Assembly: GCF_056746865.1 (NCBI RefSeq)
Contig: NZ_CM163382.1
Reading direction: 5' to 3' (one strand)
DNA: 64,000 nucleotides
Shown: positions 37,940-55,101 of the stretch, one piece after another
Numbering within the stretch: the first letter of the stretch is position 1
Layout of the letters: each line of letters starts with the position of its first letter
The notes under the pieces: generated by a model
What the model was told of the DNA's origin: nothing
The model's database searches: none
What the model saw: the letters and a program-made list of their open reading frames with translations, nothing else
Translations under genes and position numbers: made by a program

Positions 37940-38173
37940 TTATTGCCTGAGAATTCCCTCACTGGCGAGATACGAATTTAGCTGTTTTCCGGCATCAGGT
38001 TCAAAATTCCAGCACCGCCAGCGTAGCTGCCCTTCGGCATTGCGGATAACCAGCCGGAAATGCGTTCCCTGGTCATCTTCAATAAGCACATTGCGGTAAG
38101 CTGTTGTGACGGCAACCGCCTGTTCGCGTGAGAAAGGGCCTTCGGGCAATAAAACAGGGTGGCAGTCCGACAT
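37940..38173 (-). CDS. DUF905 (YkfF/YpjJ-like) small protein
   Basis: 77-aa ORF; family assignment by recall and context. Confidence 0.6.
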
Positions 38174-38178
38174 ACCGA

Positions 38179-38856
38179 CTATTTTCCGATAAATTCAACG
38201 CTGGCGCTGGTGGCATTACCGTCAGCACCAACCGTGACGGTCACTTTGTCGTACGCACGGTCTTCAGGATTGAATACTTCAAACTCAACCTTATTGCCTT
38301 TTACTTCGTAAGAGCCAAAATCAGCGGTTTCTGTTGTTTCCTCGTCATATTCCCGGGCGTATGCCTGCCGGGCAGCCTGCAGGACGGAATCTTTATTAAT
38401 AGTGGTCGTCTGTTTCGGGGAAAAACCGGCAAGTGATGTGACAAATTTCGGACAGACCTTCAGCATATCACCGCGGGTGAATTCCATTCGTACACCAAAT
38501 GCCTGTAAAACGGACACATCACGCTCTGCTATGGAGTGAACGGCTTTTTTGACCATTTCCGGCGCCTGTCCGATTTCCACCTCAACAGCCCTGAATCCCG
38601 TCTGCTGATTACACATTTGTGATGTGGGGATCAGGTTACCGTTAATACTGATACGGCTGCCCAGGAGCGTCTGTACACCATTCGGGCATCCCTGCATCAG
38701 GCCAGTAATACCAATCGTGCCATTTTTCAGCATTACCAGCGCCTGACCATCTTCCGTCATGGTCTGACACCAGCCGTTTTTGACAGCCCAGTTGCCGGCG
38801 GAGGCGGAGAATGATGCCACAGTGAACAGCAGGGGAAAAAGAGCTCTGGTATTCAT
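38179..38856 (-). CDS. Predicted exported protein of unknown function (signal peptide)
   Basis: ORF 38179..38961 trimmed to [23 protein letters not shown]… (Sec signal peptide, AxA cleavage site, GAGG RBS); no family recognised. Confidence 0.6.
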
Positions 38857-39003
38857 GACTGACCTCTGAAATGAACGTACGGTGTTATTGATAATGATGG
38901 AAGGTATGCAGTGACTGTTCAGGGAATGACGTAGCCGTATATTTAGTTTTCTGTTCAACATATTGTCTCCATACCTGTCGGGACGGCTTTGGCAGGCCGG
39001 CGA

Positions 39004-39684
39004 TCACAGGTTAAAGGTGTTGATAAGTTTATGGATGAAAGAGAAATGTGGCAGGGCGGAGATAAAACGCTCTTCAGCGACCAGACTGTGGATGTGGCCT
39101 CTCCGTTCAAACCGTTCTGATGTCAGGCTGACTGATTTGATATCTGCCAGAGGAAAGACCTGCAGTTTTCCCTTCTGTAACGCGATCAGATACCAGCTAC
39201 CGCTGTAATAAATGAGCCGGCAGGGCTCCAGTGACGGATACCATCGCTCAGTCATCAGAGAGATGTGGATACACTGTCTTATTGCCAGGATGAGTTGCGA
39301 GAAACACTCGGGGAACGTTGCAGTGATATCCGGCGCCGGTAGCCAGATAAGGCAGGGAGAGGGCTCCTGGTTGTCGGTAAGACAGGTTATCAGTCGTCCG
39401 TTCCGGAGCGGAAGTATCCGTGCGATCCCGGTATTCTGTATAAAAGAAAGCATTTCAGGGATCGCACCTGGGCTGCTCTGTCGTCTGAGACTGTACCGGC
39501 CATTTCTGTACTCTAAGTCCAGGTGAACCAGACGCTGATGAAAATCGCGCTGTAAAGTACGTTCTGTAACGCCAAATTCATCTGACAGTGTTTTTAGTGA
39601 CAGAGATTCTCCGGCCATCAGTCGGCTGATAATGAGTGATAAGCGAACCGCCAGGCGATCATGCCGGGAACGATTATCAGACAT
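39004..39684 (-). CDS. WYL-domain transcriptional regulator (YfjR-like)
   Basis: 226-aa ORF with N-terminal HTH (…LSDEFGVTERTLQRDF…) and C-terminal WYL-type domain (…YSGSWYLIA…). Confidence 0.7.
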   Translation of the reverse strand: MSDNRSRHDRLAVRLSLIISRLMAGESLSLKTLSDEFGVTERTLQRDFHQRLVHLDLEYRNGRYSLRRQSSPGAIPEMLSFIQNTGIARILPLRNGRLITCLTDNQEPSPCLIWLPAPDITATFPECFSQLILAIRQCIHISLMTERWYPSLEPCRLIYYSGSWYLIALQKGKLQVFPLADIKSVSLTSERFERRGHIHSLVAEERFISALPHFSFIHKLINTFNL

Positions 39685-39886
39685 AGATGTGCACTCCGTA
39701 AGAAAACATCTTTTATTTCATGATGTTATTATGCATCATGATGTTGAAAGGATGTGTCGCATCCGGATAATCAGGAATAAAATGCAGCAGAAAAAATATT
39801 CTTTTAATTATCTGATTTTTAAGCATGATTTCATAAAAAGAAGAATGCTTGTTAATCCAGCGACACATCCTGTCGGCGTGAGTGTG

Positions 39887-40771
39887 TCAGAACAGACGAT
39901 CCCACAGTGTGACCAGCAAGTGGATAATGCGGTCCCGGGCCTTACGCAGAAGCTGTAACATCCAGGCCGGAAAGCTGAATTGGGCAACGGCAGCGTCAAA
40001 GCTTTTCCCGATGGCGTCACCAAAAGTTTGTTGTGCGTGTTTCCGGGCCTGTTCAGAGCGGTTTTCCCCCCGGATATGTGAATAAACTGCGCTGGTTGCC
40101 TGTGGTGGCAGTGCGTGGATCATCAGCGACACCAGTGCCGGAAGATTCCAGCCGACAGGTGCGGCAACGGAGAGTACCGGAAATGATGACGGGAACAGGG
40201 TTGCCACCCGGGCTGTTACTGTCGCCAGTGAGAGTTCCTGCTGACGGGACGGGCATTTTTCTGTGTCGTTCCATTCTTCAGCAGGAAACACGCGATCGGC
40301 ATGGCTGAGAACAAACAGAAAACGCGAGGGATCTGCACCTTCATTCAGTAAAAACTGATGCATGGCAATATCAGCAGCATACGCACGTTCATCAGCCCGC
40401 AGGATCCAGATAATCAGATCCAGTTCCGGCAGTAACTGACGGTAAAGCTCCCGGTATTCCTGATCATGCTGCGGTGTCTCACCAATGCCGGGCATATCGA
40501 CCAGCGTCATTCTGCGTTCACCGAGCTGCAGGGTAAGACGATGAGCCTGGCGGGTGCAGCCGTTCAGGGGATGCGTGGCGCAGATACGGGACTGAAAAAT
40601 GGCATTACACAGACTGCTTTTGCCGGTGCCGGATTTACCCATAATGCCAATTACGGGCTCGTAATGAATAACACCGTGGAGATGTTCAAGGATTTTCTGG
40701 CGAATTTCTTCAGGAAGAAACGTCAGATATGATTTTACTTGTGCAGAGAGGGAAGAATGGCTGAATGACAT
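39887..40771 (-). CDS. P-loop GTPase, YfjP/YeeP/YkfA family
   Basis: 294-aa ORF with G1 motif GIMGKSGTGKSS and G3 motif DMPGIGE. Confidence 0.8.
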   Translation of the reverse strand: MSFSHSSLSAQVKSYLTFLPEEIRQKILEHLHGVIHYEPVIGIMGKSGTGKSSLCNAIFQSRICATHPLNGCTRQAHRLTLQLGERRMTLVDMPGIGETPQHDQEYRELYRQLLPELDLIIWILRADERAYAADIAMHQFLLNEGADPSRFLFVLSHADRVFPAEEWNDTEKCPSRQQELSLATVTARVATLFPSSFPVLSVAAPVGWNLPALVSLMIHALPPQATSAVYSHIRGENRSEQARKHAQQTFGDAIGKSFDAAVAQFSFPAWMLQLLRKARDRIIHLLVTLWDRLF

Positions 40772-40955
40772 ACCGGTATCCTGTTGATTTCGCTGAACCG
40801 GATCACACTAATCCGGTTTATCATTCAGGTAATATGGACGTGAAAAATGATGGAATGTCTGAATTACGGACATGATTGTTAAAGTGTAATGGAGTATGAA
40901 GTGAGTTTTTCCGAACGGGAACTAATGACATACTGCGGTTTCAGGAGATGAGAGG

Positions 40956-42086
40956 ATGACCGGACGTAAAAACAAATGTGTCAGAAAAAATTGTAACAAT
41001 CAGGTTTTCTCAGTAAAAATGGCAGTGGAGAAAAGACTGTGCAGAAAACATTATGAGAGGTTTTGTGAGCTCAAAAAAAGAAGAGAGCAAAATCCTGTTC
41101 ACAGATTAAATGAAGCATTGCCAAGAAAGATAAAAGGACCAAAAAGTAAGAAAAAATTAGTAAAAGAAAGAGAAATCATTAACAGCAGAAAAAAACATAA
41201 ACAGGAGCAGGGACCATCGCTGACTGAACTTAATAAAAAAGTTCGTGAGATACTGAAAACTCCTGCATGGAGAACGCTGGAAACGAGAATTCGAAGAAAC
41301 GGAATCACATTTAAGTCAAAAGCAGAGTTAGATGCGCTTTCTGAACTTTATGCAATTTATTCATGGGTTTCATATTGCAAACGGGGCGATAATTATTCTG
41401 TGTGGTTTTTGAATTGTCCGGATGTAAATATAAACCTTCATGTGTGCGAATGCCGGTCTTCTGAAAGCGATTGTTATCTGCCATCTCGTTTTATTATTCT
41501 TCCAGCTCCATTAAGGCAAAAAGTAAAAAGAAAATACTCGGCTAATTCGTCTGGGGTACCAGGACATAATGATTCAAAAAGTCTTTATAAGACAGTTTTG
41601 TCTGTTTGTGGTGGGAAAAGAGAAACCGAATTGTTCTTTTATTCACTGCCAGTAAAGACTAATCATCATCCTTACTGGATTAAAAGTGGTGTGGTTAAAA
41701 GATTTCCTCCTGTTTTTGGTTTGTTGTTTTATGAACAGGAAAGATTAACAGGAGGTGTTTTTCGTTATGTGTTGATAAGGTTTTATAATACTTTTAAGGA
41801 GAATTTGTTTTTTGTTGAGATTGTCTCGTGCTGTTTTCTTGTTGAGCTTTTTCATGATATTGATTCGTTTTTTATAAATCAACGATTAAGTAAGCTGGAA
41901 AGTTTTATAGATAAGTGGAGGGAGGGTAAAGAAATCTGGATAAAAGCATATCTACAACTGATACATAATACATTGGGAATAACTGAAACAGAAAAACTCG
42001 TCAATCTATATAATTCATTTTTTACTGATAAAGTGGTTATCTGGGATGAATCAGTAAAAAAAGTTAAGTGGATTTATGAGAAATAG
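40956..42086 (+). CDS. Orphan hypothetical protein in AT-rich cargo locus (Lys/Arg- and Cys-rich N-terminus, aromatic-rich C-terminal half)
   Basis: 376-aa ORF with GGAG-like RBS (ggagatgagagg) before ATG; markedly AT-rich codon usage compared with flanking genes; no family recognised. Confidence 0.6.
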   Translation: MTGRKNKCVRKNCNNQVFSVKMAVEKRLCRKHYERFCELKKRREQNPVHRLNEALPRKIKGPKSKKKLVKEREIINSRKKHKQEQGPSLTELNKKVREILKTPAWRTLETRIRRNGITFKSKAELDALSELYAIYSWVSYCKRGDNYSVWFLNCPDVNINLHVCECRSSESDCYLPSRFIILPAPLRQKVKRKYSANSSGVPGHNDSKSLYKTVLSVCGGKRETELFFYSLPVKTNHHPYWIKSGVVKRFPPVFGLLFYEQERLTGGVFRYVLIRFYNTFKENLFFVEIVSCCFLVELFHDIDSFFINQRLSKLESFIDKWREGKEIWIKAYLQLIHNTLGITETEKLVNLYNSFFTDKVVIWDESVKKVKWIYEK

Positions 42087-42629
42087 TACCATTTAACTGA
42101 AAGCCACCATAACGTCTTTTTGACTACATCCATGATAATGAGTCTCATTTTGATTTCGTTTTTTTTGTTTCGGGAAATTTTCCGAACATCAGTGATAATG
42201 AGGGTTTTGTTGTTTTTGTTTCTGCAATGTTTGAGGGCTGTTCCTGGAGATGATTCGTTGCTTGTGAGCAAGAGGTGGTCCGCTTTACTGGACAAGTTTT
42301 GCATTTGTTGAGTGGTGAAATGGAAGTAAAAAGAGCCCCTTTCTGGCAATGACTGAAAAAGTCAGTAGCGTGTGACAGTAAAAACTAACATAAAGTGATT
42401 ATCGTATGATTATGACAATGACTTATAACTTTTATGAAAAGAACAACAGAAACTATGAAACCATAGCAGATTCCTGAGACCATGTTTTCTGAGGTAGAGA
42501 AAATAATTCAAGAGTAAACCAGTTTGTTTTTTGGTCAGTAAAGAACCATGCCTGATGTGAAAACGGGTAATCAACATTCAGTCTGCATGAATGTCTGAGA
42601 ATGTTGCTAATGTCGGTATGATACTATAT

Positions 42630-42725
42630 ACACGTATTTTACTAAGTATTTTTACTAAGCATTTCAGTAAGTGTTTTACCAGACATACACGTGTTTTCAT
42701 AAACAGCCCTATAAGTGTTTTCATT
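42630..42725. repeat. Cluster of degenerate ~12-bp direct repeats (iteron-like) in AT-rich intergenic region
   Basis: Motif (A/T)(C/A)TAAG(T/C)(A/G)TTTT / ACACGT(A/G)TTTT recurs at about 42634, 42646, 42659, 42671, 42691 and 42715, first four with ~12-bp spacing. Confidence 0.5.
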
Positions 42726-43601
42726 AAGCATTGCTGTACACATTGCTTTGTCTGAAACACATCCAGTTTAGTAAATCTTTACGTTAGCTAAAATCAGTTT
42801 AAAGCTGCTGTAAAACCTTTCTGTTTAAGCAATCAATCTGCTATTCGATTTTACTGATGTTGCGTTTAACCTTTTCTGAGTTTTTGTGTTTTTAGTCGTT
42901 AACCTGAGACAAGTGTCTTTACGTAAAAACGCAAATCCGACTGAGATAACCTGGTGTGATTTACGGTGTGCTTGCGACGATTTTGTTAAATGGTTCTATG
43001 GATGATTTTGTGACGATGAGATTGATGAGATGATTAACTGGCCCTGGTGTTTTTTCTCAGTGCAAGGTGATTATCTTCATCATAAGGCTCTTTTCAGAAA
43101 AAGCGTGATGATTGGTTCTGGTGTTTTGATTCAGATGAGATTTACGTTATCGATGGTTAATCGTTTTTATGGTGTGTTGAAAAGTAACGTTTTCACGATA
43201 AGAAAATCGATTCTGATATTGGTGAACTTTGTTCTTGTGGCAGGGTTATCTGTAAACAGGTTTTAAGTGCGCTATTCGGCTCTGTGATTGAGTTGTGTGG
43301 TTAAGCTGTAGGTTTTGGTGTTGTTGTTGATTTACAGCGCCAGAAAGCGTTCTGATTGCGTTTTTGATGTTTTGTTTGCACGTTCTGTTGATCCGTTTCC
43401 CTTCAGGCTTTGTAGTTTTTAAAAACCATTTATGCCGTTGTTGTGTGTTTTATCCTGCGTGTAGGTTTATCTTTTCTTCGTGGGGGATTCATTCTGTTTT
43501 AATCAGGAGCCATTGGCGTTGCTCAATGGCGGGATGCCGTAAAGTTTTACCGCAGTGATTAATGATGTGAAGTCAATCCAAATCAACGGAGATCTCTCAT
43601 C

Positions 43602-44333
43602 ATGAATCAACCAATACACAATGCTTACTGGTTATCCCGTTTTGAAAGTATTCTCAACAGTGCCCTGGCGCAACACCGTGCCGTCTCGTTAATCCGGGTG
43701 GATTTACGTTTCCCTGAGTATATGCCTGCCACCATCATGGATACCGATTTAGATTCAGCGGTGATTTCTCGTTTTTTTGCATCCCTGAAAGCAAAAATTC
43801 AGGCTTACCAGCGACATAAACGACGTGCCAACAAGCGTGTGCGTGCAACCACTCTGCGTTATTTCTGGTGTCGGGAGTTTGGCAAGGAAAAAGGCAGGAA
43901 ACATTATCACGTGATATTACTGCTCAACAAAGATACCTGGTGCTCGCCAGGGGATTTCACCGTTCCTTCTTCGCTGGCGACACTGATCAAGCTGGCATGG
44001 TGTAGTGCTCTGCATCTTGAGCCCTGGCAGGGTAATGGACTGGTTCATTTTTCCAGGCGGACGCCTTTCCGTAAACCGACATCATCTGATGCTCGCCCTT
44101 CTTCCGATGATACGCCTTTGTCGGGTGGATGTTCTGATACCAGGAAGGCTTCAGACAAAAAGCCGGGTGAAGCCGCTGTTCTCTGGATCAAGCGTGGTGA
44201 TGTGGAAGCGCTGCAGAAAGCCCGGAACAGAGCCAGTTATCTCGTGAAATATGAGACGAAGCAGCATGACGGTTCCGGGCAACGTAATTATGGTTGCAGT
44301 CGTGGGCCGGGGCGTCTGCTGGATGGCAGGTGA
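43602..44333 (+). CDS. Inovirus Gp2-like / YagK-YfjJ family protein with HUH-type and YxxKYxxK motifs
   Basis: 243-aa ORF; contains HYHVILLL (HUH-like) and SYLVKYETK (rolling-circle Rep motif-3-like). Confidence 0.7.
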   Translation: MNQPIHNAYWLSRFESILNSALAQHRAVSLIRVDLRFPEYMPATIMDTDLDSAVISRFFASLKAKIQAYQRHKRRANKRVRATTLRYFWCREFGKEKGRKHYHVILLLNKDTWCSPGDFTVPSSLATLIKLAWCSALHLEPWQGNGLVHFSRRTPFRKPTSSDARPSSDDTPLSGGCSDTRKASDKKPGEAAVLWIKRGDVEALQKARNRASYLVKYETKQHDGSGQRNYGCSRGPGRLLDGR

Positions 44334-44689
44334 GCCCTGTAAAACGACATCCGGTGTCTGAGCTTATGCTACAGGACGTTGGCTGACGCCCTTAGCTCGT
44401 TTTCTGAAAAAGTCGTCCTGAAGTCATGCAACGGTATTTTTCTCTGCTTTCGCTCCTGGAAACACTCCGTCGGTAAAACCTTACTGTCCTGCTTAATGAT
44501 GTGAACCGAAGTCAACGGAGAGCATTCATTCTGAACCTGCATCCGGTGTTCTGTCCCTTGTCGGTTACCTGATCTTCCCGTTCTGCCGCGGTTTTTCACT
44601 TATTCCATCAACCCCATACGCAAGCCATAACACGTCAGCGCATCCACGGGCAGGACGCGTTGTGGGCTGCGTATAACGGAACATATCTT

Positions 44690-45262
44690 ATGAATGCTAT
44701 CCCTTATTTCGACTATAGCATGGCGCCCTTCTGGCCATCTTATCAGAACAAAATCATCGGCGTTCTCAACCGTGTGTTGCGCGAGCAGTCCTGCTCCCGA
44801 ATACGGCGGATCCTGCTTCGTCTGCCGGGGGAACATGGCAACATCTTCAGCGACAGAAAAACCTGGTTCGGTATGGCCTTTATCGAAACCGTCAGTGCGC
44901 TGATGAATGCAACACCCGGACGCGACCTCTGCTGGCTCCTGACACGTCATCCTGAAAAACCGGAATACCACGTGGTGCTGTGCGTCAGACAGGAATATTT
45001 CGACGGCCCTGAGCTGGACCGGTTGATTCTGGATGCCTGGAGCAACGTACTGGGCTTCGCGTCACCGGGTGAAGCAGCACCGTACCAGAAACAGATAACC
45101 CGGGATGTGGTGCTGGACAGTTGTTCACCGGACTGCGAAGAGAGACTCAAAGAGCTGATATGGGCGTTCAGTGATTTCGCCCGCGATCGTCGTGGTGTGC
45201 GCGATCCGGAAGCCCGTTACCTCGCCGGTAATCCCTGGTATCCCGTAGCAGGCCAGCTCTGA
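44690..45262 (+). CDS. Divergent Gp2-like paralog (hypothetical)
   Basis: ORF 44660..45262 (TTG-initiated in track); ATG at 44690 gives MNAIPYFD…; shares N-terminal R-h-x-L-R-x-P-x-E motif with 43602..44333 but lacks clear HUH and Tyr motifs. Confidence 0.5.
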   Translation: MNAIPYFDYSMAPFWPSYQNKIIGVLNRVLREQSCSRIRRILLRLPGEHGNIFSDRKTWFGMAFIETVSALMNATPGRDLCWLLTRHPEKPEYHVVLCVRQEYFDGPELDRLILDAWSNVLGFASPGEAAPYQKQITRDVVLDSCSPDCEERLKELIWAFSDFARDRRGVRDPEARYLAGNPWYPVAGQL

Positions 45263-45330
45263 AAGCTCAGCTCAGCAGATTCACCCGCATTTGCCCAACA
45301 TTCATAAATCTCACAGAGGACATTCTGACC

Positions 45331-45567
45331 ATGTTGACCTCAATGACAGGTCACGACAGCGTATTGCTGCGTGCCGACGATCCCCTGATCGACATGAACT
45401 ACATCACCAGCTTCACTGGTATGACCGACAAATGGTTTTACAAGCTGATCAGTGAAGGCCATTTCCCTAAACCCATCAAACTGGGGCGCAGCAGCCGCTG
45501 GTACAAAAGTGAAGTGGAGCAGTGGATGCAGCAACGAATCGAGGCATCACGAGGGGCAGCAGCATGA
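45331..45567 (+). CDS. alpA: AlpA-family phage regulatory protein (HTH)
   Basis: 78-aa ORF with AlpA-like core (…ITSFTGMTDKWFYKLISEGHFPKPIKLGRSSRWYKSEVEQWMQQR…). Confidence 0.8.
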   Translation: MLTSMTGHDSVLLRADDPLIDMNYITSFTGMTDKWFYKLISEGHFPKPIKLGRSSRWYKSEVEQWMQQRIEASRGAAA

Positions 45568-45767
45568 AACGTGTTGTAATGCCGGTACGCTGGCAATGTG
45601 CAAAATACCAGCGTTGGTATTGTGGAAATCAGCCCTGTCCCTGGTGCTGGCGACCTGCTGCCCCCGTCTGTCATTCCTCGTTCTTCGCTGTAACAGGCAT
45701 CGTACCGGTCTCGGCGTGCTTTCCTGCGTACCGACACCGGTTCAGCAACATTCAAGGGGATCAAATC

Positions 45768-46304
45768 GTGCAAATAACCGAAACCGTACTTTCAGAGCCG
45801 GTGGAAATCCGGCGTTTTATTCAGCAGGCGGTGGATCACTGGCCGCGTCTGCTGGCCGTCCACTTCACACTCCATTCGGCAGAAGGAAACATCAACGGAC
45901 AACAGATTCATGCATTCTGTACTTCCTTTTATGAACGTATTACTGAGCGTAATCACACGACCAGTCCATCATCGCCGGTGGTATTACGCTGGTTGCGGGA
46001 ACAACATGGAGGAGCAACAATGCGATGCCTGTTGCTGCTCAGCCAGACGAGTATTTGTCACCCGCGAGCCAGTGTCACAGTTGATGAACAATGTTCGCAA
46101 GTGGTGGATTTACTGCAGCAGACCTGGCGGGGGATGGATACGGGCGGACAATGTCGGGTGGAAAGGTGTTTTCAGGCTGCCCGGGGTGATACATCCGGCC
46201 AGTATATTGCGTTAAAAACAGTTGCATTGTCTCTGGGGTTACCGGTTGTGACCGGTATTACCCATCGCCCGGTACAGCGCTGTACATTGATTACAGCTCA
46301 GTGA
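45768..46304 (+). CDS. Hypothetical protein, possible third Gp2-like paralog
   Basis: In-frame part of ORF 45522..46304; GTG at 45768 preceded by AAGGGGA RBS; alternative ATG start at 45564 overlaps alpA stop (ATGA). Confidence 0.45.
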   Translation: MQITETVLSEPVEIRRFIQQAVDHWPRLLAVHFTLHSAEGNINGQQIHAFCTSFYERITERNHTTSPSSPVVLRWLREQHGGATMRCLLLLSQTSICHPRASVTVDEQCSQVVDLLQQTWRGMDTGGQCRVERCFQAARGDTSGQYIALKTVALSLGLPVVTGITHRPVQRCTLITAQ

Positions 46305-46321
46305 ACAGCGCTGTTGTGCAG

Positions 46322-46833
46322 TCAACGAGGTTTTCTGTCTTTTCGTCGGTCATTCAGCATCATTAAACGGGTCTCTGCCTCTTTCTGTTCCTGTGGTGTC
46401 ACTTCCCCGCACGGCTGACCGTTCAGGTTGTAACGGGCGCCACCTGCTATTAACGCACGGTAATAGCGCGGAGACTGCACATAAGACGCCACTGCTGCAT
46501 GTAATGTACCAGCGCCAAACGCCAGTTCTCGGATGGCGATATCCTGTATCAGGTCGTCAGGTATCCCCACTTTAAGTGGTTTTGTTTTTTTCCCGGTTGA
46601 ATGACTCAGGCCAGAGTTCCACAAGACGAATAATGCGCTTACGGTTTTTGCTCTGGCGTTTTGTCATGTCGCCACGGTGTTTTATCAGCAGGTTTCTGTT
46701 TATCGTTCAACTGTGGTATCTGGTCACCGGCCTTCATTTTGTATGCTGTGTCCGTTTTATCCTGCAGCGGCGTTGCCGGTGATTTACTGAAAATACCCTG
46801 CGGTTTACGGTTAATGGTCAGAGTTACCATCAA
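46322..46833 (-). pseudogene. Two consecutive ORFs (64 aa and 100 aa) in different frames, possibly one disrupted gene
   Basis: ORFs 46639..46833 and 46322..46624 on the same strand separated by 14 bp with a frame change; no family recognised. Confidence 0.3.
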
Positions 46834-47188
46834 TTTTGTTACCTCGCGCTGTCAATGGAAGTAGTACCTCATCCGATATCTGAAAATGTTTTCCGGTGGA
46901 TGTTACAGCGAATTTCATGTAAGACATGTTGTTGTCGGTATTGTTCAGTACTGTGCGTTGTGAGCGTATTCGTTATCAGACAGAGGGGCAGGGAACAAAT
47001 GGCGTAAACGGACATCTCAGTGCCTGAGAAACAGTACAGGTCAGGCCATCATGGCCTGCAAACAGAGCCCTGGCGACCCCGTGGCCGAAAACGAAACAAT
47101 AACCCGCGCGCAGTGCGAGGAATCCGGATGTGAAGCAATCAGCAGGTAATATTAATGGCAGGACCAGCAGGTTCTTTAAACAAACGAA

Positions 47189-47951
47189 GGTGGTGACTCC
47201 AATTAGTAGAACATATATTTTTCGATAAAGGCACCGATGACTTTTTCATGAAGTTCTACAGAGCGCGAGAAACAGATAGTTCTGCGGGCCAGACGTTTGA
47301 TTCGGGTTCTCAGAGGTAGATGTTGCGCTCAATGCGCTGAGTAAAAATCTTACCAGTCAGATGCTTCTCCTTCGGTAACTCTCTGGTGTAACTACCCCAT
47401 TCGTCAGTGGTCAACATACCGATGGTAAAAGGGCAAGCAGCGCCAGCAATTCACGACAGGTTTAATCAGTCCGTAGGCCAAAAGTGTAGGCCAGAACGCC
47501 ACCAGTTTTCGTGTTGTACGTGTACCAGAGCCAGTGCTGTCGCGCTTTACTGCCGACAAAACTCCATTGCTCATCAAGTTCGCAGATGAGTGCCATATCA
47601 GCATGAGCGACCGGGTATGACGTTATTCTTCGTGGCGAGAGTTTTTTAAAGTCCGGATGACAGTATTAATGCCGATTTTCAGCGTACGGGCAGTATCGCG
47701 AACTCCGGCACCGTTGAAAGCCATTTCAGTGATTTGCTCTTTAACTCCCGGTTTACGGGCCTCGTAACGGTAAGTGAGCTGAAGCACTCGATGACAGTCA
47801 CGGCAGCGAAATCGATCATGTCCTTTGGGTTCTTCCCGTGACGGTAAACCTGAACGGACTGGCAACAGGAGCAATGAAGGTTAACTGTGACCATGAAAGA
47901 ACCTTAAAAGTGGCTATTATACTCCTAATTCAACTAATTGGAGTCATTACC
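47189..47951 (-). mobile_element. IS1-family insertion sequence (divergent isoform), insB apparently degenerate
   Basis: Terminal inverted repeats ggtggtgactccaatt (47189-47204) and ggtaatgactccaatt (rc of 47936-47951); length 763 bp; insA intact; conserved TTAAAAAAC frameshift motif at insA end; InsB-like translation needs at least two further frame changes. Confidence 0.75.
47623..47874 (-). CDS. insA: IS1-family InsA (zinc-finger/HTH transposition regulator)
   Basis: 83-aa ORF with CxxC…CxxC zinc finger and C-terminal HTH resembling IS1 InsA (…GINTVIRTLKNS…). Confidence 0.8.
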   Translation of the reverse strand: MLLLPVRSGLPSREEPKGHDRFRCRDCHRVLQLTYRYEARKPGVKEQITEMAFNGAGVRDTARTLKIGINTVIRTLKNSRHEE

Positions 47952-49329
47952 GTATTCATAATGGATTAGGTTCAGCAGTTGCTGAAGTGCTTGTAGAAAC
48001 TTGTCCTGTGCCCATGCGTCGGGTGGGGGTTAAAGAGCGGTATGGCCAGGTTGAAACTCAGGACTTTTTACAGAGAGAGTACGGGTTAACCGCGCAAGCT
48101 ATTGTGGCGGCAGCCAGAGAGCTATTGTAATTCATGGAGTTTGTTTACCATTCTGTTTTTCTTAAAAGTGAGTGTCTGTGCGGTCACTAAACTCGGTAAT
48201 AAAGCAGTTCATTGCAGGATAAGAAGCGTTTGGTTGTGTCGTTTTACCGTAAGAACCGACCGCCGTATGTATCCATTAAGCCAGTATTGGTAACGTAGGT
48301 GCCCACCTTTTCAAACTGGTGGGCGCCTGTTATGGAGCAAAAACATTATCCGCAGAACCCCGCAGATCATTTTCAAATGAGTTAAACTTCAAATGGTTAA
48401 ACTGGCTTTGCAACCAGGAGCCTCTGTTGCCCGTATTGCCCGGGAACACGATATCAATGATAACCTCCTGTTCAAATGGCTCAGACTCTGGCAGAACGTA
48501 AGGTAAAGGGAGATGAAAAAGGCAATAGCAGAACTGAGTGACAGTGAAACCATTCTGGCGTACAGGGTTGGATGGTGAAACTGATAAAAAAACCCTCTGA
48601 AAATTCTGTCAGAGGGTGTAGTCAAAAATGGTAGATATTTACGATGCAGTAATGCTTTCACTCCGGTAATTAATTTCCGTGATTAACTGCTTTCGATCAA
48701 TAAAGGAATTGCAAAAGTGTGATCTTGTTCACGACATCGTGGATGATAATATGCCTGATGTCTGAATCCGGAAACAGTGCTCTGGCGGGTTTCATGTGAA
48801 GTTGACGGATAAAAAATCCGCACGACCAGACAGACGTGCGGTTTACGAAATTCGTAACAAGAGGCTTTTCTACGGATCACGTGGTGCGTGCCACGTGAAA
48901 TTTTTGTAGCGCAAAATGTGCAATGTGTAAATACAAGGAAGGAAAAAAGTTAAATTGGTAGAAGTCCATGCCTGCCACATGTACGTCTGCATTCCTCGTT
49001 TTGAACAGAATTCTCACCAGACATCGTGAATTTCTCATTCAATCATCAGAGATATTAACCAGGATTTTTATTGTTTTGTGATATCAGCAGTGCAGGTATA
49101 CAGACGTTAAAGTAATCAGGTTTATTATAACCACCTTTACAAAGTTGTATATGTTTATAATTTAATGATTTTAATGCCAGTCGTTTTCTGCTGCTTAAAT
49201 TGAGGTCGCATATTATACACAATAATATTCTTAGCATTATTAAATTAATAAGAGAGGATTCTTATCACTGTATTTTTGCTCCGCACTACCGTTCTGGCTG
49301 GTGAAGTAATAATACAGGAGAATAACAGA

Positions 49330-50871
49330 ATGCTTAAAAGACGTGATGCTTTTTTAAAGAAAAGCGCGCTGGCAGTGAGTGTGGCCCTGCTGCTCTCGGC
49401 TCAGGCTCAGGCTGTTTTGACAGGGCCTGTTGATGGTAATTCTTCCAGCTTACTGATTGGAGAAAACTCTTTTATTACGAATTTAACTGGTACAGTTAAT
49501 AACACTTTCCTTTTGGGAGGTGGCGCTTTTAACCTGGATTCACCAGGAAGTCTTCAGTTTGGCTCTTTTTCGGAAGTGTATAATTCTCCACACAGTGTCA
49601 CCCTGGGAAGGGATGCCGGTCAGGCTGAGTCAAAATATGGTGTTGCCATAGGTAAGAGCGCTGAGGTATTTAATTCACAGCATAGTGTTGCTATTGGGGG
49701 ATGGGCTGGAATAGAAAATTCTTCAGGCTCTGTAGCTCTGGGCCATGGCTCACAGGTGTCGGGAGAAAATAACGTGGTATCTGTTGGTGCCGGGCCTGAG
49801 GGATATGGAAAGAGTGTCAAAGGAGCACCGGAAACCCGCCGGATTATAAATGTGTCTGATGGTATCAATAACACAGATGCAGCGACGGTAGGGCAACTGA
49901 ATGAACGATTTGATGATGCACAGGTCTTTTTGTTGCAGACGAATGAAAGAATTGACGAGACAGATAAACGTCTTTCAACAGTTCATGCTGAACTCAGCAG
50001 GGATATTATTGCAGGCACATCGGCAGCGGTGACGTATACAGATGTAACAGCGCTTGCACTTCAGGATGAGATAAAGGATGGGACGAACAAAGTACGTGAT
50101 GAGTTGAAATCACAGGGAGACAGTCTGCGTGGTGAGATAGGCGGTGTATACAGAGATGCCCGTGCTCATACTGACAGTCAGGTCACAGCAGTACGTGATG
50201 AACTGAAGGCAGAGGGAGACAGTCTGCGCGGTGAGATAGGCGGTGTATACAGAGATGCCCGTGCTCATACTGACAGTCAGGTCACAGCAGTACGTGATGA
50301 ACTCAGCAGGGATATTATTGCAGGCACATCGGCAGCGGTGGCGTATACGGATGCATCTTCTCTTGCTCTTCAGGATGAAATAAAAGAAAAAGCGGATGAA
50401 ACAGTTCAGGTTTCCCGGGCTTATACAGATAAAAGTGTACGGGATGCCCGTAAAGAAGCGAAAAGCCAGGCAGAACATCTCAGCGATGTGCTTGTGAAGA
50501 ACAGGGCGCAGACGGATGCAGCAATAGCCTCAAATACAGCAGCGATAAGGAATAACAGTCATCGTCTGGATTTGACGGAAGCCTGGCAGAAGATGGCGAC
50601 AGAGAGAATGAATAATATGCAGGAGCAGATTAAAGAGAACCGGAAGGAGTTAAGGGAGAGTGCAGCCCAGAGCGCGGCACTGGCCGGTCTTTTCCAGCCA
50701 TACAGTGTTGGAAAATTTAACGCGACAGCAGCCGTTGGTGGTTACCGTGATGAGCAGGCCATTGCGGTGGGCGTGGGCTACCGTTTCACAGAGAATGTGG
50801 CAGGAAAAGTTGCAGTTGCTGCAGGTGGGTCATCCGCATCGTGGAATGCTGGTGTGAATTTTGAGTTCTGA
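49330..50871 (+). CDS. Trimeric autotransporter adhesin (YadA-like C-terminal anchor) with repeat-containing coiled-coil stalk
   Basis: ORF 49276..50871 trimmed to [28 protein letters not shown] (signal peptide); YadA-type head repeats (SVAIG/ VSVGAG), coiled-coil stalk, C-terminal beta-barrel anchor ending …AGVNFEF. Confidence 0.8.
50115..50312 (+). repeat. Tandem 99-bp (33-aa) direct duplication inside the adhesin stalk
   Basis: Units beginning gggagacagtctgcg at 50115 and 50214, encoding [30 protein letters not shown] twice; flanked by a second, more distant repeat pair ([12 protein letters not shown]…LALQDEIK). Confidence 0.8.
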
Positions 50872-50909
50872 CAGGTCAGGATTTAGATATCTGTCCCGGG
50901 GGGAGTCCC

Positions 50910-52248
50910 CATAAGCGCTAACTTAAGGGTTGTGGTATTACGCCTGATATGATTTAACGTGCCGATGAATTACTCTCACGATAACTGGTCAGCAATTCTG
51001 GCCCATATTGGTAAGCCCGAAGAACTGGATACTTCGGCACGTAATGCCGGGGCTCTAACCCGCCGCCGCGAAATTCGTGATGCTGCAACTCTGCTACGTC
51101 TGGGGCTGGCTTACGGCCCCGGGGGGATGTCATTACGTGAAGTCACTGCATGGGCTCAGCTCCATGACGTTGCAACATTATCTGACGTGGCTCTCCTGAA
51201 GCGGCTGCGGAATGCCGCCGACTGGTTTGGCATACTTGCCGCACAAACACTTGCTGTACGCGCCGCAGTTACGGGTTGTACAAGCGGAAAGAGATTGCGT
51301 CTTGTCGATGGAACAGCAATCAGTGCGCCCGGGGGCGGCAGCGCTGAATGGCGACTACATATGGGATATGATCCTCATACCTGTCAGTTCACTGATTTTG
51401 AGCTAACCGACAGCAGAGACGCTGAACGGCTGGACCGATTTGCGCAAACGGCAGACGAGATACGCATTGCTGACCGGGGATTCGGTTCGCGTCCCGAATG
51501 TATCCGCTCACTTGCTTTTGGAGAAGCTGATTATATCGTCCGGGTTCACTGGCGAGGATTGCGCTGGTTAACTGCAGAAGGAATGCGCTTTGACATGATG
51601 GGTTTTCTGCGCGGGCTGGATTGCGGTAAGAACGGTGAAACCACTGTAATGATAGGCAATTCAGGTAATAAAAAAGCCGGAGCTCCTTTTCCGGCACGTC
51701 TCATTGCCGTATCACTTCCTCCCGAAAAAGCATTAATCAGTAAAACCCGACTGCTCAGCGAGAATCGTCGAAAAGGACGAGTAGTTCAGGCGGAAACGCT
51801 GGAAGCAGCGGGCCATGTGCTATTGCTAACATCATTACCGGAAGATGAATATTCAGCAGAGCAAGTGGCTGATTGTTACCGTCTGCGATGGCAAATTGAA
51901 CTGGCTTTTAAGCGGCTCAAAAGTTTGCTGCACCTGGATGCTTTGCGTGCAAAGGAACCTGAACTCGCGAAAGCGTGGATATTTGCTAATCTACTCGCCG
52001 CATTTTTAATTGACGACATAATCCAGCCATCGCTGGATTTCCCCCCCAGAAGTGCCGGATCCGAAAAGAAGAACTAACTCGTTGTGGAGAATAACAAAAA
52101 TGGTCATCTGGAGCTTACAGGTGGCCATTCGTGGGACAGTATCCCTGACAGCCTACAAAACGCAATTGAAGAACGCGAGGCATCGTCTTAACGAGGCACC
52201 GAGGCGTCGCATTCTTCAGATGGTTCAACCCTTAAGTTAGCGCTTATG
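50910..52248 (+). mobile_element. IS186 (IS4 family), apparently intact, with ~10-bp target site duplication
   Basis: Termini CATAAGCGCTAACTTAAGGG (50910-) and inverted copy ending 52248; flanking direct repeat ggggagtccc at 50900-50909 and 52249-52258 within a GC-rich palindrome. Confidence 0.9.
50959..52077 (+). CDS. IS186 transposase
   Basis: 372-aa ORF MPMNYSHDNWSAILAHIGKPEELDTSARNAG… matching recalled IS186 transposase. Confidence 0.9.
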   Translation: MPMNYSHDNWSAILAHIGKPEELDTSARNAGALTRRREIRDAATLLRLGLAYGPGGMSLREVTAWAQLHDVATLSDVALLKRLRNAADWFGILAAQTLAVRAAVTGCTSGKRLRLVDGTAISAPGGGSAEWRLHMGYDPHTCQFTDFELTDSRDAERLDRFAQTADEIRIADRGFGSRPECIRSLAFGEADYIVRVHWRGLRWLTAEGMRFDMMGFLRGLDCGKNGETTVMIGNSGNKKAGAPFPARLIAVSLPPEKALISKTRLLSENRRKGRVVQAETLEAAGHVLLLTSLPEDEYSAEQVADCYRLRWQIELAFKRLKSLLHLDALRAKEPELAKAWIFANLLAAFLIDDIIQPSLDFPPRSAGSEKKN

Positions 52249-52281
52249 GGGGAGTCCCCCGGGATATAATGAGGTACAGAG

Positions 52282-52737
52282 ATGCTGGATATAATCCTGG
52301 CGACGAGAGATATTTATTTTGAAAAAGCCCTGCGAGAGGTATTTGGAACCGTAAGCAGTCGAATCAGATATATAGAAGATGCCATATCAGACAGAAGAAG
52401 GGTGCAGTCAGGCAGGTCATTCAGATATTATTTTGTATTCTGTGATGATGAGTATACAGATATTGTTCGTATTCTTTTTACCGGAGAGGCCTGCTGTATT
52501 CTGAATAAGTCGATGCTGAATCTGAGAGCGGCCGGAGGTGTGTTGACGCTGGAAGAGCGCAGAGCGGTACTGAACCGGTATTACAGAGGTTTAAGTATTG
52601 CGGAGATTACAGAAGAGACGGGGCAGAATGACAAGACGGTATACGGTCATCTTCGTCGTGCACTGCAGCGGTCTGGATTCCGGAAGGGGCGTTTTATAAA
52701 GGGGAGAGAAGCGGCGGGGGATTCAGGTGTTGAATAA
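52282..52737 (+). CDS. Putative transcriptional regulator with C-terminal LuxR/sigma-70 region-4-like HTH
   Basis: 151-aa ORF; C-terminal LTLEERRAVLNRYYRGLSIAEITEETGQNDKTVYGHLRRALQR; GAGG-like RBS (gaggtacagagATG). Confidence 0.6.
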   Translation: MLDIILATRDIYFEKALREVFGTVSSRIRYIEDAISDRRRVQSGRSFRYYFVFCDDEYTDIVRILFTGEACCILNKSMLNLRAAGGVLTLEERRAVLNRYYRGLSIAEITEETGQNDKTVYGHLRRALQRSGFRKGRFIKGREAAGDSGVE

Positions 52738-53053
52738 TGTATCTTATATTGTGATATCGGTGCTGCTGCTGTTATTTTTTGTTGTATTTGTGACGAATGG
52801 TTAAGAATAAAACATGAGTTGGTGATTATCAGGACAGGTTGCTTGTATATGAAGATAACAAAGGCGGCATTTATTTTTGCGCTGTCAGTGTGGAGTGTTG
52901 CTGTGATATGTCTTTTATTATTTGTACTGGTTGTTCTGGGATAGCCATAGTGAAATAAAAAGCTGTCTGAATTAAATTATTTTGAACACATATTTTAATT
53001 CTGCACTAAATTCAGAATGACCCTGTAAATAATTCTGTGTAACTGCCGCCGTA

Positions 53054-54261
53054 TTAAAGGTGCTCGCTAAGGCGGTCACCGAACTCGATAATAAAACGGC
53101 TCATTGCCAGCCGCCAGTTCTGGATTGGCATACTCCATTTTTTGACGCCGACTGTATCGCCAGATAAATCACTTTTCGCACCGAGTCGTCCGTTGGGAAC
53201 ACCTTGCGCTTCTTTATCGCCTGCCGAATGACACTGTTCAGCGATTCGATGGCATTCGTCGTGTAGATGGCCTTGCGGATATCCGGTGGGTAACCGAAGA
53301 AGGTGTTGAGATTTTCCCAGTGTGTGCGCCAGCTCTTGCTGATTTGCGGGTATTTTTCATCCCAGACGCCTGCAAACTTATCCAACGCCATCAACGCCGT
53401 TTCCTCTGTCGGGGCCTGATATACCGCTTTCAGCCCGCTGGTGACGGCTTTGTAATCCTTCCACGACACGAATTTCAGGCTGTTGCGCACCATATGGATG
53501 ATGCAGAGCTGAATATGCGTCTGCGGGTACACGCTATTTATCGCTTCCGGGAAGCCTTTCAGGCCGTCCACGAAGGCGATAAGGATATCGTTCAGGCCGC
53601 GATTTTTCAGTTCCGTCAGTACATTCAGCCAGAACTTTGCACCTTCATTTTCGGCCAGCCACATATCCAGCAGCTCTTTCTGACCGTCGGTATTGATGCC
53701 CAGCGCGAGGAACACCGCTTTGTTAATGACACTCCCGCTGTGACGAACCTTAACCACAATACAGTCAAGATAAACAATGGGATACAGTGCATCCAACGGT
53801 CGGTTTTGCCATTCAGAGACCTGTTCTTTAACCGCATCGGTCACTTTGGATATCAGCGTGGGCGAGACATCGGCGTCGTACATTTCTTTGAAGGCTGAGG
53901 TAATTTCGCGGGTAGTCATCCCTCTGGCATACAGCGCCAGGATCTGGTTGTCCATGCCGGTAATGCGGGTCTGATTTTTCTTCACCAGTTGTGGTTCGAA
54001 GGTATTTTCACGGTCACGCGGCGTGTTAAGTTCGATCTCGCCATCATCGCACAATACCGTTTTTGACGAGTAGCCATTACGGGTATTAGAGCCTGATTTA
54101 GGAGCATTTTTCTCATGACCTAGATGGTCAGTCAGTTCTGCATTGAGCGCCGTTTCGACGGTAAGCTTTGTCAACATGCGTGAAAACTGGTTGAGGTCGG
54201 CTTCGGTTTTAAGGCCTTTGGCCAGTTCAGCCGCAAGGACTTTAAGTTTCTTTTCGTCCAT
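53054..54261 (-). pseudogene. IS256-family transposase, frameshifted near C-terminus
   Basis: ORF 53101..54261 matches IS256/mutator-type transposase; conserved C-terminal tail KKWSMPIQNWRLAMSRFIIEFGDRL is in another frame after a T/A homopolymer near 53117-53127. Confidence 0.8.
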
Positions 54262-54429
54262 CGTTTGCCTGTCTCCGTTGTTGGAGTGAACATATCAAAA
54301 ACAGGCAATTACACAATTTTAATTACAGTCTCTTCAGAATGGGTAATCAGTGACCGTCCTGACGGTCACTTTAAAGAAAATGCATATTACACAGAATGGT
54401 AAACAGGCTCAACATAGAGCTTGAAGGTA

Positions 54430-55058
54430 GTTGTTGCCTTGTAATAAAATGTGTGATTCATAGACATCGTTTCAATTTTCTCAGTTCAAGTTCAGGCTTG
54501 TAATTCTGTTCCTGTATATGCTCTTCATTGGGCTGATAGTTTGCATGAACGGCATCGGAGTATGGTGTTTTCTCAGCAAGTTCAAAGTAGCGTTCCATCG
54601 GAGTTTTACCGTTGTGAGCGCTATGAGGACGTTCCCTGTTATAGTAATGCTACCATTCTGCTAGCAATCCCTTCAGGTCATCAGCAGAAAGATCTACGGT
54701 AGCGTAAAACTCAGCTTTGTCTGTCTTTTGGGAACGTCCAACCTTTATTACATCAGGCGACAACTACCTTGAAAAACGCCGTTACTCACCGATCCCCTTC
54801 ACGGTAATACGCACTATTGCCAGTGAGATTGAATGAAGTCGTTTTAACTCGCTTTGAATACGTCTTGCACCCAGATTTCGCTGAGAACGTAACTTCCAGA
54901 ATCAGAGCGACTTCGCAAGTGCTGGTTTTCGTTGATGGTGAACGCTTGGAGCGACGGCTGTAGCTTTCCAGACCAGCGATGCCCTGAGCCAGATATCTGC
55001 GCCACCATTTACACAATGTGGGCCGAGAAGTGCCACAGTGACGGCATACAAATGTCAA
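54430..55058 (-). pseudogene. IS481/IS3-superfamily transposase remnant (N-terminal HTH fragment and C-terminal integrase-core fragment)
   Basis: 54786..55058 encodes …RPTLCKWWRRYLAQGIAGLESYSRRSKRSP… (HTH); 54430..54660 encodes …YYNRERPHSAHNGKTPMERY… (DDE core tail); internal deletion and in-frame stop. Confidence 0.5.
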
Positions 55059-55101
55059 CGACGGATGAAAAGTGGCTCTTACGCAACCTGGATGGAGATT
55101 T

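Follow-up and report, generated by a model that had tools for sequence, protein, structure and literature searches.

The 64,000-nucleotide (nt) stretch of DNA analyzed here (the window), from contig NZ_CM163382.1 of RefSeq assembly GCF_056746865.1, is an Escherichia coli genomic island of the CP4-57/CP4-44 backbone type, as judged from the annotation of homologous loci and from Pfam matches. Its AT-rich non-coding DNA contains an array of short direct repeats that starts immediately after Box B, a conserved promoter-type element upstream of a gene of the Gp2/YagK-YfjJ family. The array is real, repeats recur at this place in other, apparently independent lineages, and within E. coli the array co-varies with the Gp2 protein. 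A lineage-specific repeat array is thus located directly at a deeply conserved promoter-type element of a gene with a predicted HUH fold. We tentatively read the array as tandem Gp2 binding sites at Gp2's own promoter, with a probability of roughly 40%.

A non-random array of short direct repeats

Two unit types, TACACRTRTTTT and TAAGYRTTTT, alternate on the same strand over positions 42629-42775 (Table 1). The strict motif TAAGYRTTT has five matches in the window, four of them on the + strand at 42643, 42656, 42668, and 42712. The relaxed form A[AC]GYRTT[TG] has seven + strand copies, at 42632, 42644, 42657, 42669, 42689, 42713, and 42726, and all seven matches of the 1515-bp AT-rich intergenic region fall within 42632-42734, a clustering reproduced in none of 2000 dinucleotide-preserving shuffles of that region. 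Because the relaxed motif had been picked after looking at the sequence, we added a motif-free statistic, the number of near-identical 9-mer pairs in any 120-bp stretch. Its maximum in the intergenic region was 42 pairs, at 42613, compared to 12.2 ± 4.5 in the shuffles (0/1000 reached 42); shuffling the local 301 bp gave an expectation of 4.5 ± 2.9, the observed value again being reached in 0/1000. Tandem Repeats Finder reported a period of 12 with 3.8 copies at 42634-42679. These data confirm that the array is non-random.

The recurring TAAG-type motif had been pointed out in an earlier note, made from the letters of the window alone, and its frequency is indeed above what the base composition would give. 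The note placed the repeats at 42630-42725, where they do occur, but the array is longer. It also described the first four copies as spaced at roughly one helical turn, which holds only approximately: the first four lie 12-13 bp apart, the seven relaxed copies follow one another at 12, 13, 12, 20, 24, and 13 bp from start to start, and the mode over 19 distinct arrays is 13 bp and not 10.5. Finally, the distance of about 900 bp to a downstream Rep-like gene was correct, but the array does not lie isolated in the non-coding DNA, starting as it does right after the Box B promoter element.

At the right end of the array are two inverted partial unit copies (Table 1), in a block (42768-42793) that is almost invariant among E. 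coli loci. These copies could pair in the RNA with the 5' units or be oppositely oriented sites. In one homologous locus, L020, TAGTAAATCTTTACGTT is tandemly duplicated in the otherwise invariant block homologous to window 42768-42785, indicating that the inverted-copy block undergoes unit duplication too.

The array follows a conserved two-box element of Gp2-family genes

The Gp2-family genes are preceded by a pair of conserved sequences, Box A and Box B, which is new to us. The pair was traced among the E. coli loci and in distant loci whose Gp2 proteins are 30-44% identical to that of the window (Providencia, Brenneria, a Klebsiella plasmid, a Salmonella contig, a Logan assembly, and six IMG/VR contigs), obtained by a protein-homologue search with recovery of the encoding contigs and by an alignment-based scan of viral contigs. 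Box A is nearly invariant in alignments of loci with Gp2 proteins 30-98% identical, coincides with the point where homology begins, on the left, between E. coli loci with different gene cassettes, and is probably a protein site. Box B lies 64-108 nt downstream of Box A, directly left of the array and within the best-conserved block of the neighborhood; the DNA that separates the two boxes shows no conservation from genus to genus. Wherever the scan detected the pair, it was present once per locus, on the gene strand, upstream of a Gp2-family gene. In Brenneria (L026) the pair was matched by neither scan and rests on reading of the sequence, the alignment, and one Box B match, and L032 gave a weak box match only, on the opposite strand.

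The boxes stay with Gp2 where the AlpA-family gene, which in the window is the last of the apparent Gp2 operon, is displaced or not adjacent, and the two-box element therefore belongs to Gp2. Thus, in L025 and L036 the AlpA gene lies elsewhere (upstream) and the boxes are still directly before Gp2, and in L007, L009, L014, L015, L018, and L020 the fetched neighborhood has no AlpA gene and both boxes and array are kept. The element is a handy sequence marker for the Gp2 gene family and for the adjoining variable-cassette hotspot described below.

Several overlapping -10 candidates were found in Box B by promoter scan: TATGAT (42617-42622), TACTAT (42622-42627), and TATATA (42625-42630). A TAnnnT hexamer is kept in all Box B variants (TATGAT, TACTAT, TATAGT, TAATAT), in E. 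coli, Providencia, Klebsiella, Salmonella, and IMG/VR loci alike, which is the pattern expected of a -10 element (T-12, A-11, and T-7 kept). The E. coli K-12 family member yagK, whose product is 30% identical to the window Gp2, has TTTAGA-TGTTGGATAGGTATTA-TATAAT upstream. This TTTAGA-16-TATAAT sequence is the "constitutive" sigma-70 promoter listed for yagK in a genomic SELEX (systematic evolution of ligands by exponential enrichment) study of RNA polymerase holoenzyme (PMC3946193). Aligned to the window, its -35 falls on the TTGCTA hexamer (Table 1) and its -10 on TATATA at 42625-42630. Box B would thus most simply be the sigma-70 promoter of the Gp2 operon, with transcription expected to start near 42636. 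With Box B aligned to the yagK promoter, the array would begin at about +1 and fill the first 110-140 nt of a predicted leader of ~970 nt. Leader length varies, from 175-335 nt in K-12 (~190 nt) and most distant loci to 1.6 kb in Klebsiella.

An array at the predicted +1 could also act as a leader-RNA element whose UUUUACUAAG units are bound by an RNA-binding protein or pair with their inverted copies, UUAGUAAA and UUAGCUAAAA, thereby controlling elongation, stability, or translation over the 1 kb of the leader. As RNA, segment 42634-42800 folds into a long hairpin (z -3.0, matched by 1/200 shuffles), the same long-range stem is found in several variants, and in L003, L014, and L015 the partner block has an A-to-G change that still allows pairing via G-U. 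The sense strand of the leader is, moreover, C-poor and G-rich, a composition that disfavors Rho loading. The number of units, however, varies, and the variant folds differ (z -3.7 to +1.7), no compensatory double changes are seen among variants, and the arrays of other lineages are unrelated in sequence. Scanning 38000-48000 with the Rfam 15 covariance models gave no relevant match at E≤1, so that a known RNA family was dismissed for array and leader, and no terminator-like site was found in the leader. Overall, we regard control by the leader RNA as improbable.

Equally improbable, in our view, is that the array is a silencing platform, i.e., that its phased T-tracts form bent or high-affinity AT-rich DNA on which H-NS (with Hha/StpA) nucleates and keeps the operon off with no island-specific binder. 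The region is AT-rich (32-38% G+C compared to ~51% for the genome), T-tracts are present at 42637, 42649, 42674, 42694, and 42718, and in the K-12 yagL-yagK spacer, where the Box B promoter lies, H-NS is also flagged by genomic SELEX (PMC3946193). Against this, the T-tracts are spaced 12, 25, 20, and 24 bp apart, out of helix phase, there is no match to the high-affinity motif, and H-NS would need neither the conserved non-T letters of the units (TACAC, TAAG) nor the lineage-specific motifs. Silencing by H-NS is compatible with the other explanations.

Some further features of this non-coding DNA are worth recording. The + strand of 42087-43601 is asymmetric in composition (T 37%, A 26%, G 22%, C 15%; GC skew up to +0.37), which fits a C-poor untranslated leader or frequent single-strandedness. 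Three better-conserved blocks of the leader, 43124-43211, 43290-43409, and 43534-43601, are 0.87-0.99 identical among loci, and in this part small - strand open reading frames (ORFs) are called by the Prokaryotic Genome Annotation Pipeline in some genomes (WP_000573211.1, WP_023150487.1); this part may hold another promoter or encode a small RNA or protein. Just after the yagK promoter, K-12 (L038 2575-2620, - strand) has a perfect 10-bp inverted repeat, TACTCTTACT/AGTAAGAGTA, with an AGTAAG core common to units of the island arrays and to the Klebsiella locus. When Box B was compared by eye with the nick sequences of phiX174, pC194, pMV158, and geminiviruses, the matches were partial and confined to one lineage each, and we make no claim of them.

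Unit turnover in E. coli and recurrence of repeats after Box B

The 1.3-kb non-coding stretch around the array, in which RefSeq annotates no feature, matches 1877 of 5426 complete E. coli genomes at 70-98% identity, with a median of 2 places per genome. In all E. coli loci examined, an array is retained and its unit types are the same. From one fixed anchor to the other, on either side of the array, homologues measure 113-230 nt, the differences corresponding to the gain or loss of whole units or unit pairs (~12, 25, 34, 52 nt). Since these indels are not multiples of three, the two small ORFs that overlie the array (42591-42755, +; 42578-42760, -), for which no family match was found, were ruled out as coding. 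Among 22 sequences there were 19 distinct arrays, with secondary spacings of 19 and 24-25 bp besides the 13-bp mode. The most diverged array, that of L021 (7-mer Jaccard 0.08 to the window), keeps the TACAC and TTA(A/G)G cores at comparable positions, the rest being changed. Several loci have a 531-nt - strand hypothetical gene, WP_000778605.1, inserted in the leader between array and Gp2 (L011 3259-3789, L013 3274-3804, L016 3287-3817, L017 3277-3807, and L023 2301-2831).

The motif-free repeat test was then applied to the 150 bp after Box B in 15 regions, with the 150 bp before Box B as a control. Direct repeats were in excess after Box B in 7/15 regions (p≤0.017). For the window, L018, L027 (Providencia), and L030, the observed value was reached in 0/300 shuffles, and the other three were L037 (Klebsiella; p=0.010), L021 (p=0.013), and a second YagK/YfjJ paralogue in L001 (p=0.017). 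Three of these seven (window, L018, L021) are alleles of one E. coli island module. The region after the K-12 promoter gave p=0.06. None of the 15 upstream controls fell below p=0.05, L026 being at exactly 0.050. The motifs differ by lineage, Providencia having CTATGTGTTT, L030 CTATATMTCT with a super-period of 22 bp, the L001 paralogue TATATATTCTT, and Klebsiella YAGTAAG. The repeat units tend to reiterate the Box B tail. The idea that the same array might be found next to Gp2-like genes in other genomes hence holds for the E. coli loci, but other lineages have different motifs or none. Recurrence in what appear to be independent lineages points either to selection for multiple copies after Box B or to a duplication-prone place.

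The L001 paralogue (15168-16744) lies in the same island as the first, adjoins a TIR-domain gene, and has its own 1.5-kb AT-rich non-coding region, in which a Box-B-like GGTTTATTACTATAATTATAT is followed by TATATATTCTT (x2.3) and ATTCACTCC repeats. Arrays of another kind are present at the far left of the intergenic region, by the start of the leftward gene, in Brenneria (L026 2793-2869; ACACATTTTA x4 at 22-23-bp spacing) and in the Logan contig (L025 2480-2543; reverse complement of TGTATRTTTT x3, 22-23 bp). The motif of these far-left arrays resembles the E. coli units.

The array tracks Gp2

The gene downstream of the array, which the earlier note had taken to be Rep-like, has the sequence motifs of an HUH endonuclease, a metal-binding HxH and a catalytic Tyr. 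Its product matches Pfam YagK_YfjJ_C and REP_ORF2-G2P, and H101 and H103 (HYHVxLLLN), Y213, and K216 (YLxK) are invariant in 11 diverse homologues. By tblastn, Gp2 reaches Microviridae replication initiators around the HUH motif. No solved structure of a sequence-level relative was found; the protein models as a single-domain HUH nuclease/origin-binding fold. The link of the repeats to a Rep-like gene, as made in the earlier note, is supported. Compared to relatives in other genera, the E. coli island Gp2 has an additional Ser/Pro-rich insertion of ~45 amino acids (aa; residues ~150-190, predicted local distance difference test <50), and frameshifted variants of the gene exist (P0058, P0083).

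To relate the array to Gp2, the identity of each segment was compared with Gp2 protein identity by a Mantel test over 18 aligned loci. The array correlated with Gp2 (r 0.37, p 0.002); the Box A-B interval (42502-42610, r -0.09), Box B (0.12), and the right flank (42777-42900, r 0.15) did not, even though the right flank lies closer to Gp2 than the array, and values rose again only nearer the gene. A k-mer version gave a rho of 0.37 for the array compared to 0.01 for the 150 bp downstream. This is suggestive of array type and Gp2 allele being inherited or selected together, and only suggestive in view of the small sample and of loci that are both related and mosaic.

The AlpA-family protein, for its part, could be the binder if, as an excisionase-type protein, it polymerized head-to-tail on the repeats and switched the Gp2-hypothetical-AlpA operon on and off. 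Xis, Cox, TorI, RdfS, and BldC all bind direct repeats at a spacing of about one turn. The element does encode a cognate winged-helix protein of the recombination directionality factor (RDF) type, with a Phage_AlpA match (Table 1), sequence matches in the PDB to an AlpA-family protein, TorI, and RdfS, and a TIGR01764 excisionase-domain score of 20.7 bits, below the 28.8-bit curated cutoff. Its gene is the last of the apparent operon, and the Gp2-AlpA synteny of E. coli is shared by Providencia, Brenneria, and Klebsiella. An AlpA operator is also favored by the findings that RdfS binds inside its own promoter and that proteins of this kind oligomerize head-to-tail on repeats (PMC11963761). However, boxes and arrays remain directly upstream of Gp2 irrespective of the AlpA gene (see above). 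L008 and L021, moreover, encode an identical AlpA protein (WP_000958153.1) and have very different arrays and differing Gp2 proteins, i.e., the array does not co-vary with the RDF gene. In addition, the motif is not found elsewhere in the window, e.g., near a recombination site. In strain CFT073, there was no integrase within 45 kb on the side searched for the motif near an integrase or attachment site. We therefore think an AlpA operator distinctly unlikely; action of an RDF on the array in trans is possible. The island AlpA, being of the small Xis/TorI/RdfS type, was also dismissed as a homologue of the Q-like Pseudomonas aeruginosa AlpA antiterminator, which acts through an element between -35 and -10 and a sigma-dependent pause.

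Proposed Gp2 binding and autoregulation, and a putative origin

We infer that Gp2 itself would be the binder. Under this reading, the units would be head-to-tail protein recognition sites extending from the transcription start of the Gp2 operon some 110-150 bp into the leader, and the island's own Gp2/YagK-YfjJ protein, a small predicted HUH nuclease, would bind the TACAC/TAAG-type units cooperatively as several protomers. Bound Gp2 would throttle its own promoter as a roadblock or occluder just downstream of the -10, and would position the nuclease by the AT-rich Box B region. Gp2 may also nick this same DNA, which would then be an origin from which the excised island is replicated by the rolling-circle mode or transferred. 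HUH and origin-binding domains are known to bind tandem short repeats next to nick sites. The binding array of the earlier note, with the Rep-like protein or AlpA as the possible binder, thus remains plausible in its Rep-linked form, which we rank first, AlpA being the less likely of the two because boxes and arrays travel with Gp2.

A number of observations weigh against Gp2 binding. The literature searched contained no report of binding, nicking, or replication for any Gp2-family member, and a helicase domain is lacking from Gp2. Nor does the modal spacing of 13 bp correspond to a helical repeat. Box B, the family-conserved sequence that the repeats abut, is at least equally explained as a sigma-70 promoter, and no nick motif can be assigned to it: neither a conserved hairpin nor an HUH nick motif was found at Box B (single-stranded DNA fold of 42560-42700, z -1.3), and no conserved inverted repeat flanks it. 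The missing hairpin lowers the case for membership in the rolling-circle double-strand origins, the mechanism being still compatible; not all HUH origins need a hairpin, e.g., that of Ff gpII. About half of the Box B lineages lack a repeat excess (none in the other 7 regions), so that the array is not obligatory for the Gp2 family, and the Mantel result rests on related, mosaic loci and an indel-rich alignment. Copy number differs even among loci >96% identical, matches to the same query measuring 1304, 1306, or 1326 bp. The mean pairwise identity of the non-coding module is 0.75-0.85, compared to 0.905 at Gp2 third codon positions, with the array columns the least conserved of all owing to unit indels; conservation alone is therefore no proof of array function, and purifying selection is only hypothetical. 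The probability of Gp2 binding was held at the value given above because the literature searched yielded no biochemistry of the family, the array is not obligatory, there is no nick hairpin, and the array evolves fast.

Copy-number change among close loci is also expected of a functionless minisatellite, in which slippage and unequal exchange in an AT-rich, weakly constrained leader homogenize tandem copies next to the promoter. Gain and loss of whole units between close relatives, array columns that are the least conserved in a region evolving faster than synonymous sites, and the lack of arrays in about half of the Box B lineages all speak for it. Nevertheless, repeat excess, its motifs differing, arises repeatedly on the downstream side of Box B and essentially never on the upstream side, the core letters are retained in the diverged L021 array, the array co-varies with Gp2 and its flanks do not, and inverted unit copies lie in an almost invariant block. 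We consider a functionless minisatellite unlikely.

Box A, Box B, and the array may together constitute the cis-acting origin of a hitherto unrecognized system, at which the YagK/YfjJ HUH protein nicks at or next to its own promoter, which we regard as a doubtful proposition but one with consequences. If true, such nicking would lead to replication of excised CP4-type islands by the rolling-circle mode or to their relaxase-like single-strand transfer, explaining the persistence after excision and the spread of very common E. coli and other Enterobacterales islands that lack conjugation and phage-packaging genes, and co-resident islands would owe their specificity or incompatibility to the type of repeat. 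What is at stake is thus whether the element is a functional rolling-circle or transfer origin or merely an autoregulated relic. The 4.5-kb record "Escherichia phage ECO111 5-P," which contains a Gp2 homologue, was rejected as a minimal replicon, being an unverified low-coverage contig.

Iterons and partition sites were named in the earlier note, and direct repeats of 12-13 bp in AT-rich DNA would also be consistent with an iteron origin of the classical theta type or with a parC/tubC-like partition centromere as in plasmids; a GTPase gene is nearby. However, the neighboring genes include no winged-helix Rep gene and no Rep_3/RepA family match, and the units, at 12-14 bp, are shorter than typical 17-22-bp iterons. 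Segment 42400-43000 has no DnaA box (even relaxed), IHF consensus, or GATC; Fis-like, CRP, and H-NS consensus sites are likewise absent from it. As for partition, the GTPase is of the YeeP/YfjP type (MMR_HSR1, dynamin-like), not tubulin- or ParA/ParM-like, it lies across a variable cassette, and there is no partner gene for a centromere-binding protein. Neither alternative is at all probable.

Island setting and a variable-cassette hotspot

The earlier note had raised the possibility of a satellite-type element; the element is instead the conserved backbone of CP4-57/CP4-44-like E. coli islands. Left of the array, on the - strand, are genes for a YeeP/YfjP-type GTPase, a WYL/helix-turn-helix (HTH) protein, a DUF932 protein, an antirestriction protein, a RadC-like protein, and CbeA/CbtA, and to the right, on the + strand, the Gp2/YagK-YfjJ gene, a ~190-aa gene without a family match, and the AlpA-family gene (Table 1). 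The GTPase gene is the ancestral divergent partner of the Gp2 gene, and GTPase/Gp2 synteny is seen also in the Providencia and Brenneria loci.

In the 20 homologous loci fetched, what separates the GTPase gene from the non-coding module, be it one gene or more, is wholly different from locus to locus. Homology among loci with different cassettes resumes at window position ~42500 in all 20, and the conserved unit therefore comprises 42500-43601 plus the Gp2 gene, with the array 130 bp inside its left edge. The interval from the GTPase gene to Box A is hence a variable-cassette hotspot, with at least four unrelated gene sets in the E. coli loci: a 376-aa gene (window 40956-42499), a 407-aa gene, two convergent genes (310-328 aa and 262-269 aa), and a further gene pair (further hotspot coordinates: L008 211-1985, L010 900-2123, L018 1-1664). 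None of these sets, including the 376-aa gene of the window, has a Pfam or PADLOC match, and the genes could be unrecognized defense or anti-defense cargo. The ~190-aa gene was rejected as a DNA-binding candidate, as it has no family match and does not resemble the DNA-binding gene located before Gp2 in L036.

Farther right in the window, 49276-57739 encodes a YadA-like trimeric autotransporter, a sigma-70 region-4 protein, and several transposases (DDE_Tnp_1, Mutator, ISL3). At 38960-39003, adjoining the WYL/HTH-domain gene (39004-39684), Rfam gave a weak match to the c4 antisense RNA target a1b1 (18.6 bits, E 0.58). As there is no integrase or tRNA gene in the window, the ends of the island are outside it.

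TABLE 1 Features of the array region and its surroundings (positions in the window)
Feature	Position	Strand	Basis or remark
YeeP/YfjP-type GTPase gene	39887..40771	-	Pfam MMR_HSR1 and related families; first gene of the leftward backbone cluster
Variable cassette: 376-aa gene and trailing non-coding DNA	40956..42499	+	Outside the conserved module
Box A ATAATTCAAGAGTAA	42503..42517	+	Family consensus ATAAyTCCAGAGT; left edge of the conserved module
-35-like hexamer TTGCTA	42604..42609	+	TTGAGA in most E. coli homologues; aligns with the K-12 yagK -35, TTTAGA
Box B TGTCGGTATGATACTATAT	42611..42629	+	Family consensus TGTyGG(n)TAT.GTAmTATAT; promoter scan, cross-genus conservation
Direct-repeat array	42629..42775	+	Shuffle statistics, homologues, unit indels, spacing
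Array unit TACACGTATTTTAC	42629-42642	+	Overlaps the tail of Box B
Array unit TAAGTATTTTTAC	42643-42655	+	
Array unit TAAGCATTTCAG	42656-42667	+	
Array unit TAAGTGTTTTACCAGACA	42668-42685	+	
Array unit TACACGTGTTTTCA	42686-42699	+	
Array unit TAAACAGCCCTA	42700-42711	+	
Array unit TAAGTGTTTTCAT	42712-42724	+	
Array unit TAAGCATTGCTG	42725-42736	+	
Array unit TACACATTGCTTTGTCTGA	42737-42755	+	
Array unit AACACATCCAGTTTAGTAAA	42756-42775	+	
Two inverted partial unit copies, TTAGTAAA (42768-42775) and TTAGCTAAAA (42784-42793)	42768..42793	+	Inverted repeats, conservation, RNA fold
Rest of the AT-rich, G+T-skewed non-coding stretch, putative 5' leader	42776..43601	+	Composition, conservation profile
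Gp2/YagK-YfjJ family gene	43602..44333	+	Motifs HYHVILLLN and YLVKY; proposed array binder
Conserved hypothetical gene, ~190-200 aa	44660..45262	+	Between Gp2 and AlpA; no family match; in many homologous loci
AlpA-family winged-helix gene, excisionase/RDF type	45331..45567	+	Pfam Phage_AlpA 2e-10

Significance and comparison with known systems

The module is present in about one-third of complete E. coli genomes, often in several copies, and is part of the backbone of tRNA-associated pathogenicity and fitness islands. If the two-box element and array were an origin, the interest for this widespread island class would be much higher. In a related class of Pseudomonas islands, a Gp2-like gene is listed in a recent study as one of the likely core functions, without an assigned function (PMC12595487).

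Binding of Gp2 to tandem units at its promoter would, by analogy, match how the structurally closest proteins, RepB and NS1/Rep, work. The double-strand origin of the pMV158 family, recognized by RepB, combines a "bind" locus of three 11-bp distal direct repeats with a "nic" locus. The window differs in that no nick-sequence hairpin was found at Box B, that arrays of its type have 5-13 units of two alternating types, ~0.9 kb from the gene and on a chromosomal island, and that replication is only hypothesized. Parvovirus NS1 and the Rep protein of adeno-associated virus (AAV) bind tandem tetranucleotides, and in the AAV p5 element the Rep-binding repeats lie between TATA box and transcription start, making it promoter and origin at once. 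Unlike the array, these are tetranucleotide repeats of eukaryotic viruses, and the proteins contain a superfamily 3 helicase.

SGI1 is likewise an integrase-type enterobacterial island in which an initiator gene of the island adjoins an array of direct repeats, silent in the integrated state. Its rep and iteron origin are active only after excision, and its rep-oriV has four 17-bp iterons and a DnaA box (PMC7433901). The SGI1 Rep is, however, of the RepA_C/winged-helix type with GC-rich 17-bp iterons and a DnaA box, whereas the window has a predicted HUH gene, AT-rich 12-13-bp units, and no DnaA box. With the Xis/Cox/TorI/RdfS/BldC operators the window shares an AlpA-family gene in the operon and direct repeats at the promoter, for which head-to-tail cooperative binding would be expected (PMC11963761); it departs from them in that the array follows Gp2 and not AlpA, is spaced at 13 bp and not 10-11, and is not at an attachment site. 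Closest to hand is K-12 yagK, whose promoter is homologous to Box B: there, the inverted repeat described above takes the place of the direct array after the promoter, and the leader measures ~190 nt compared to ~970 nt in the window.

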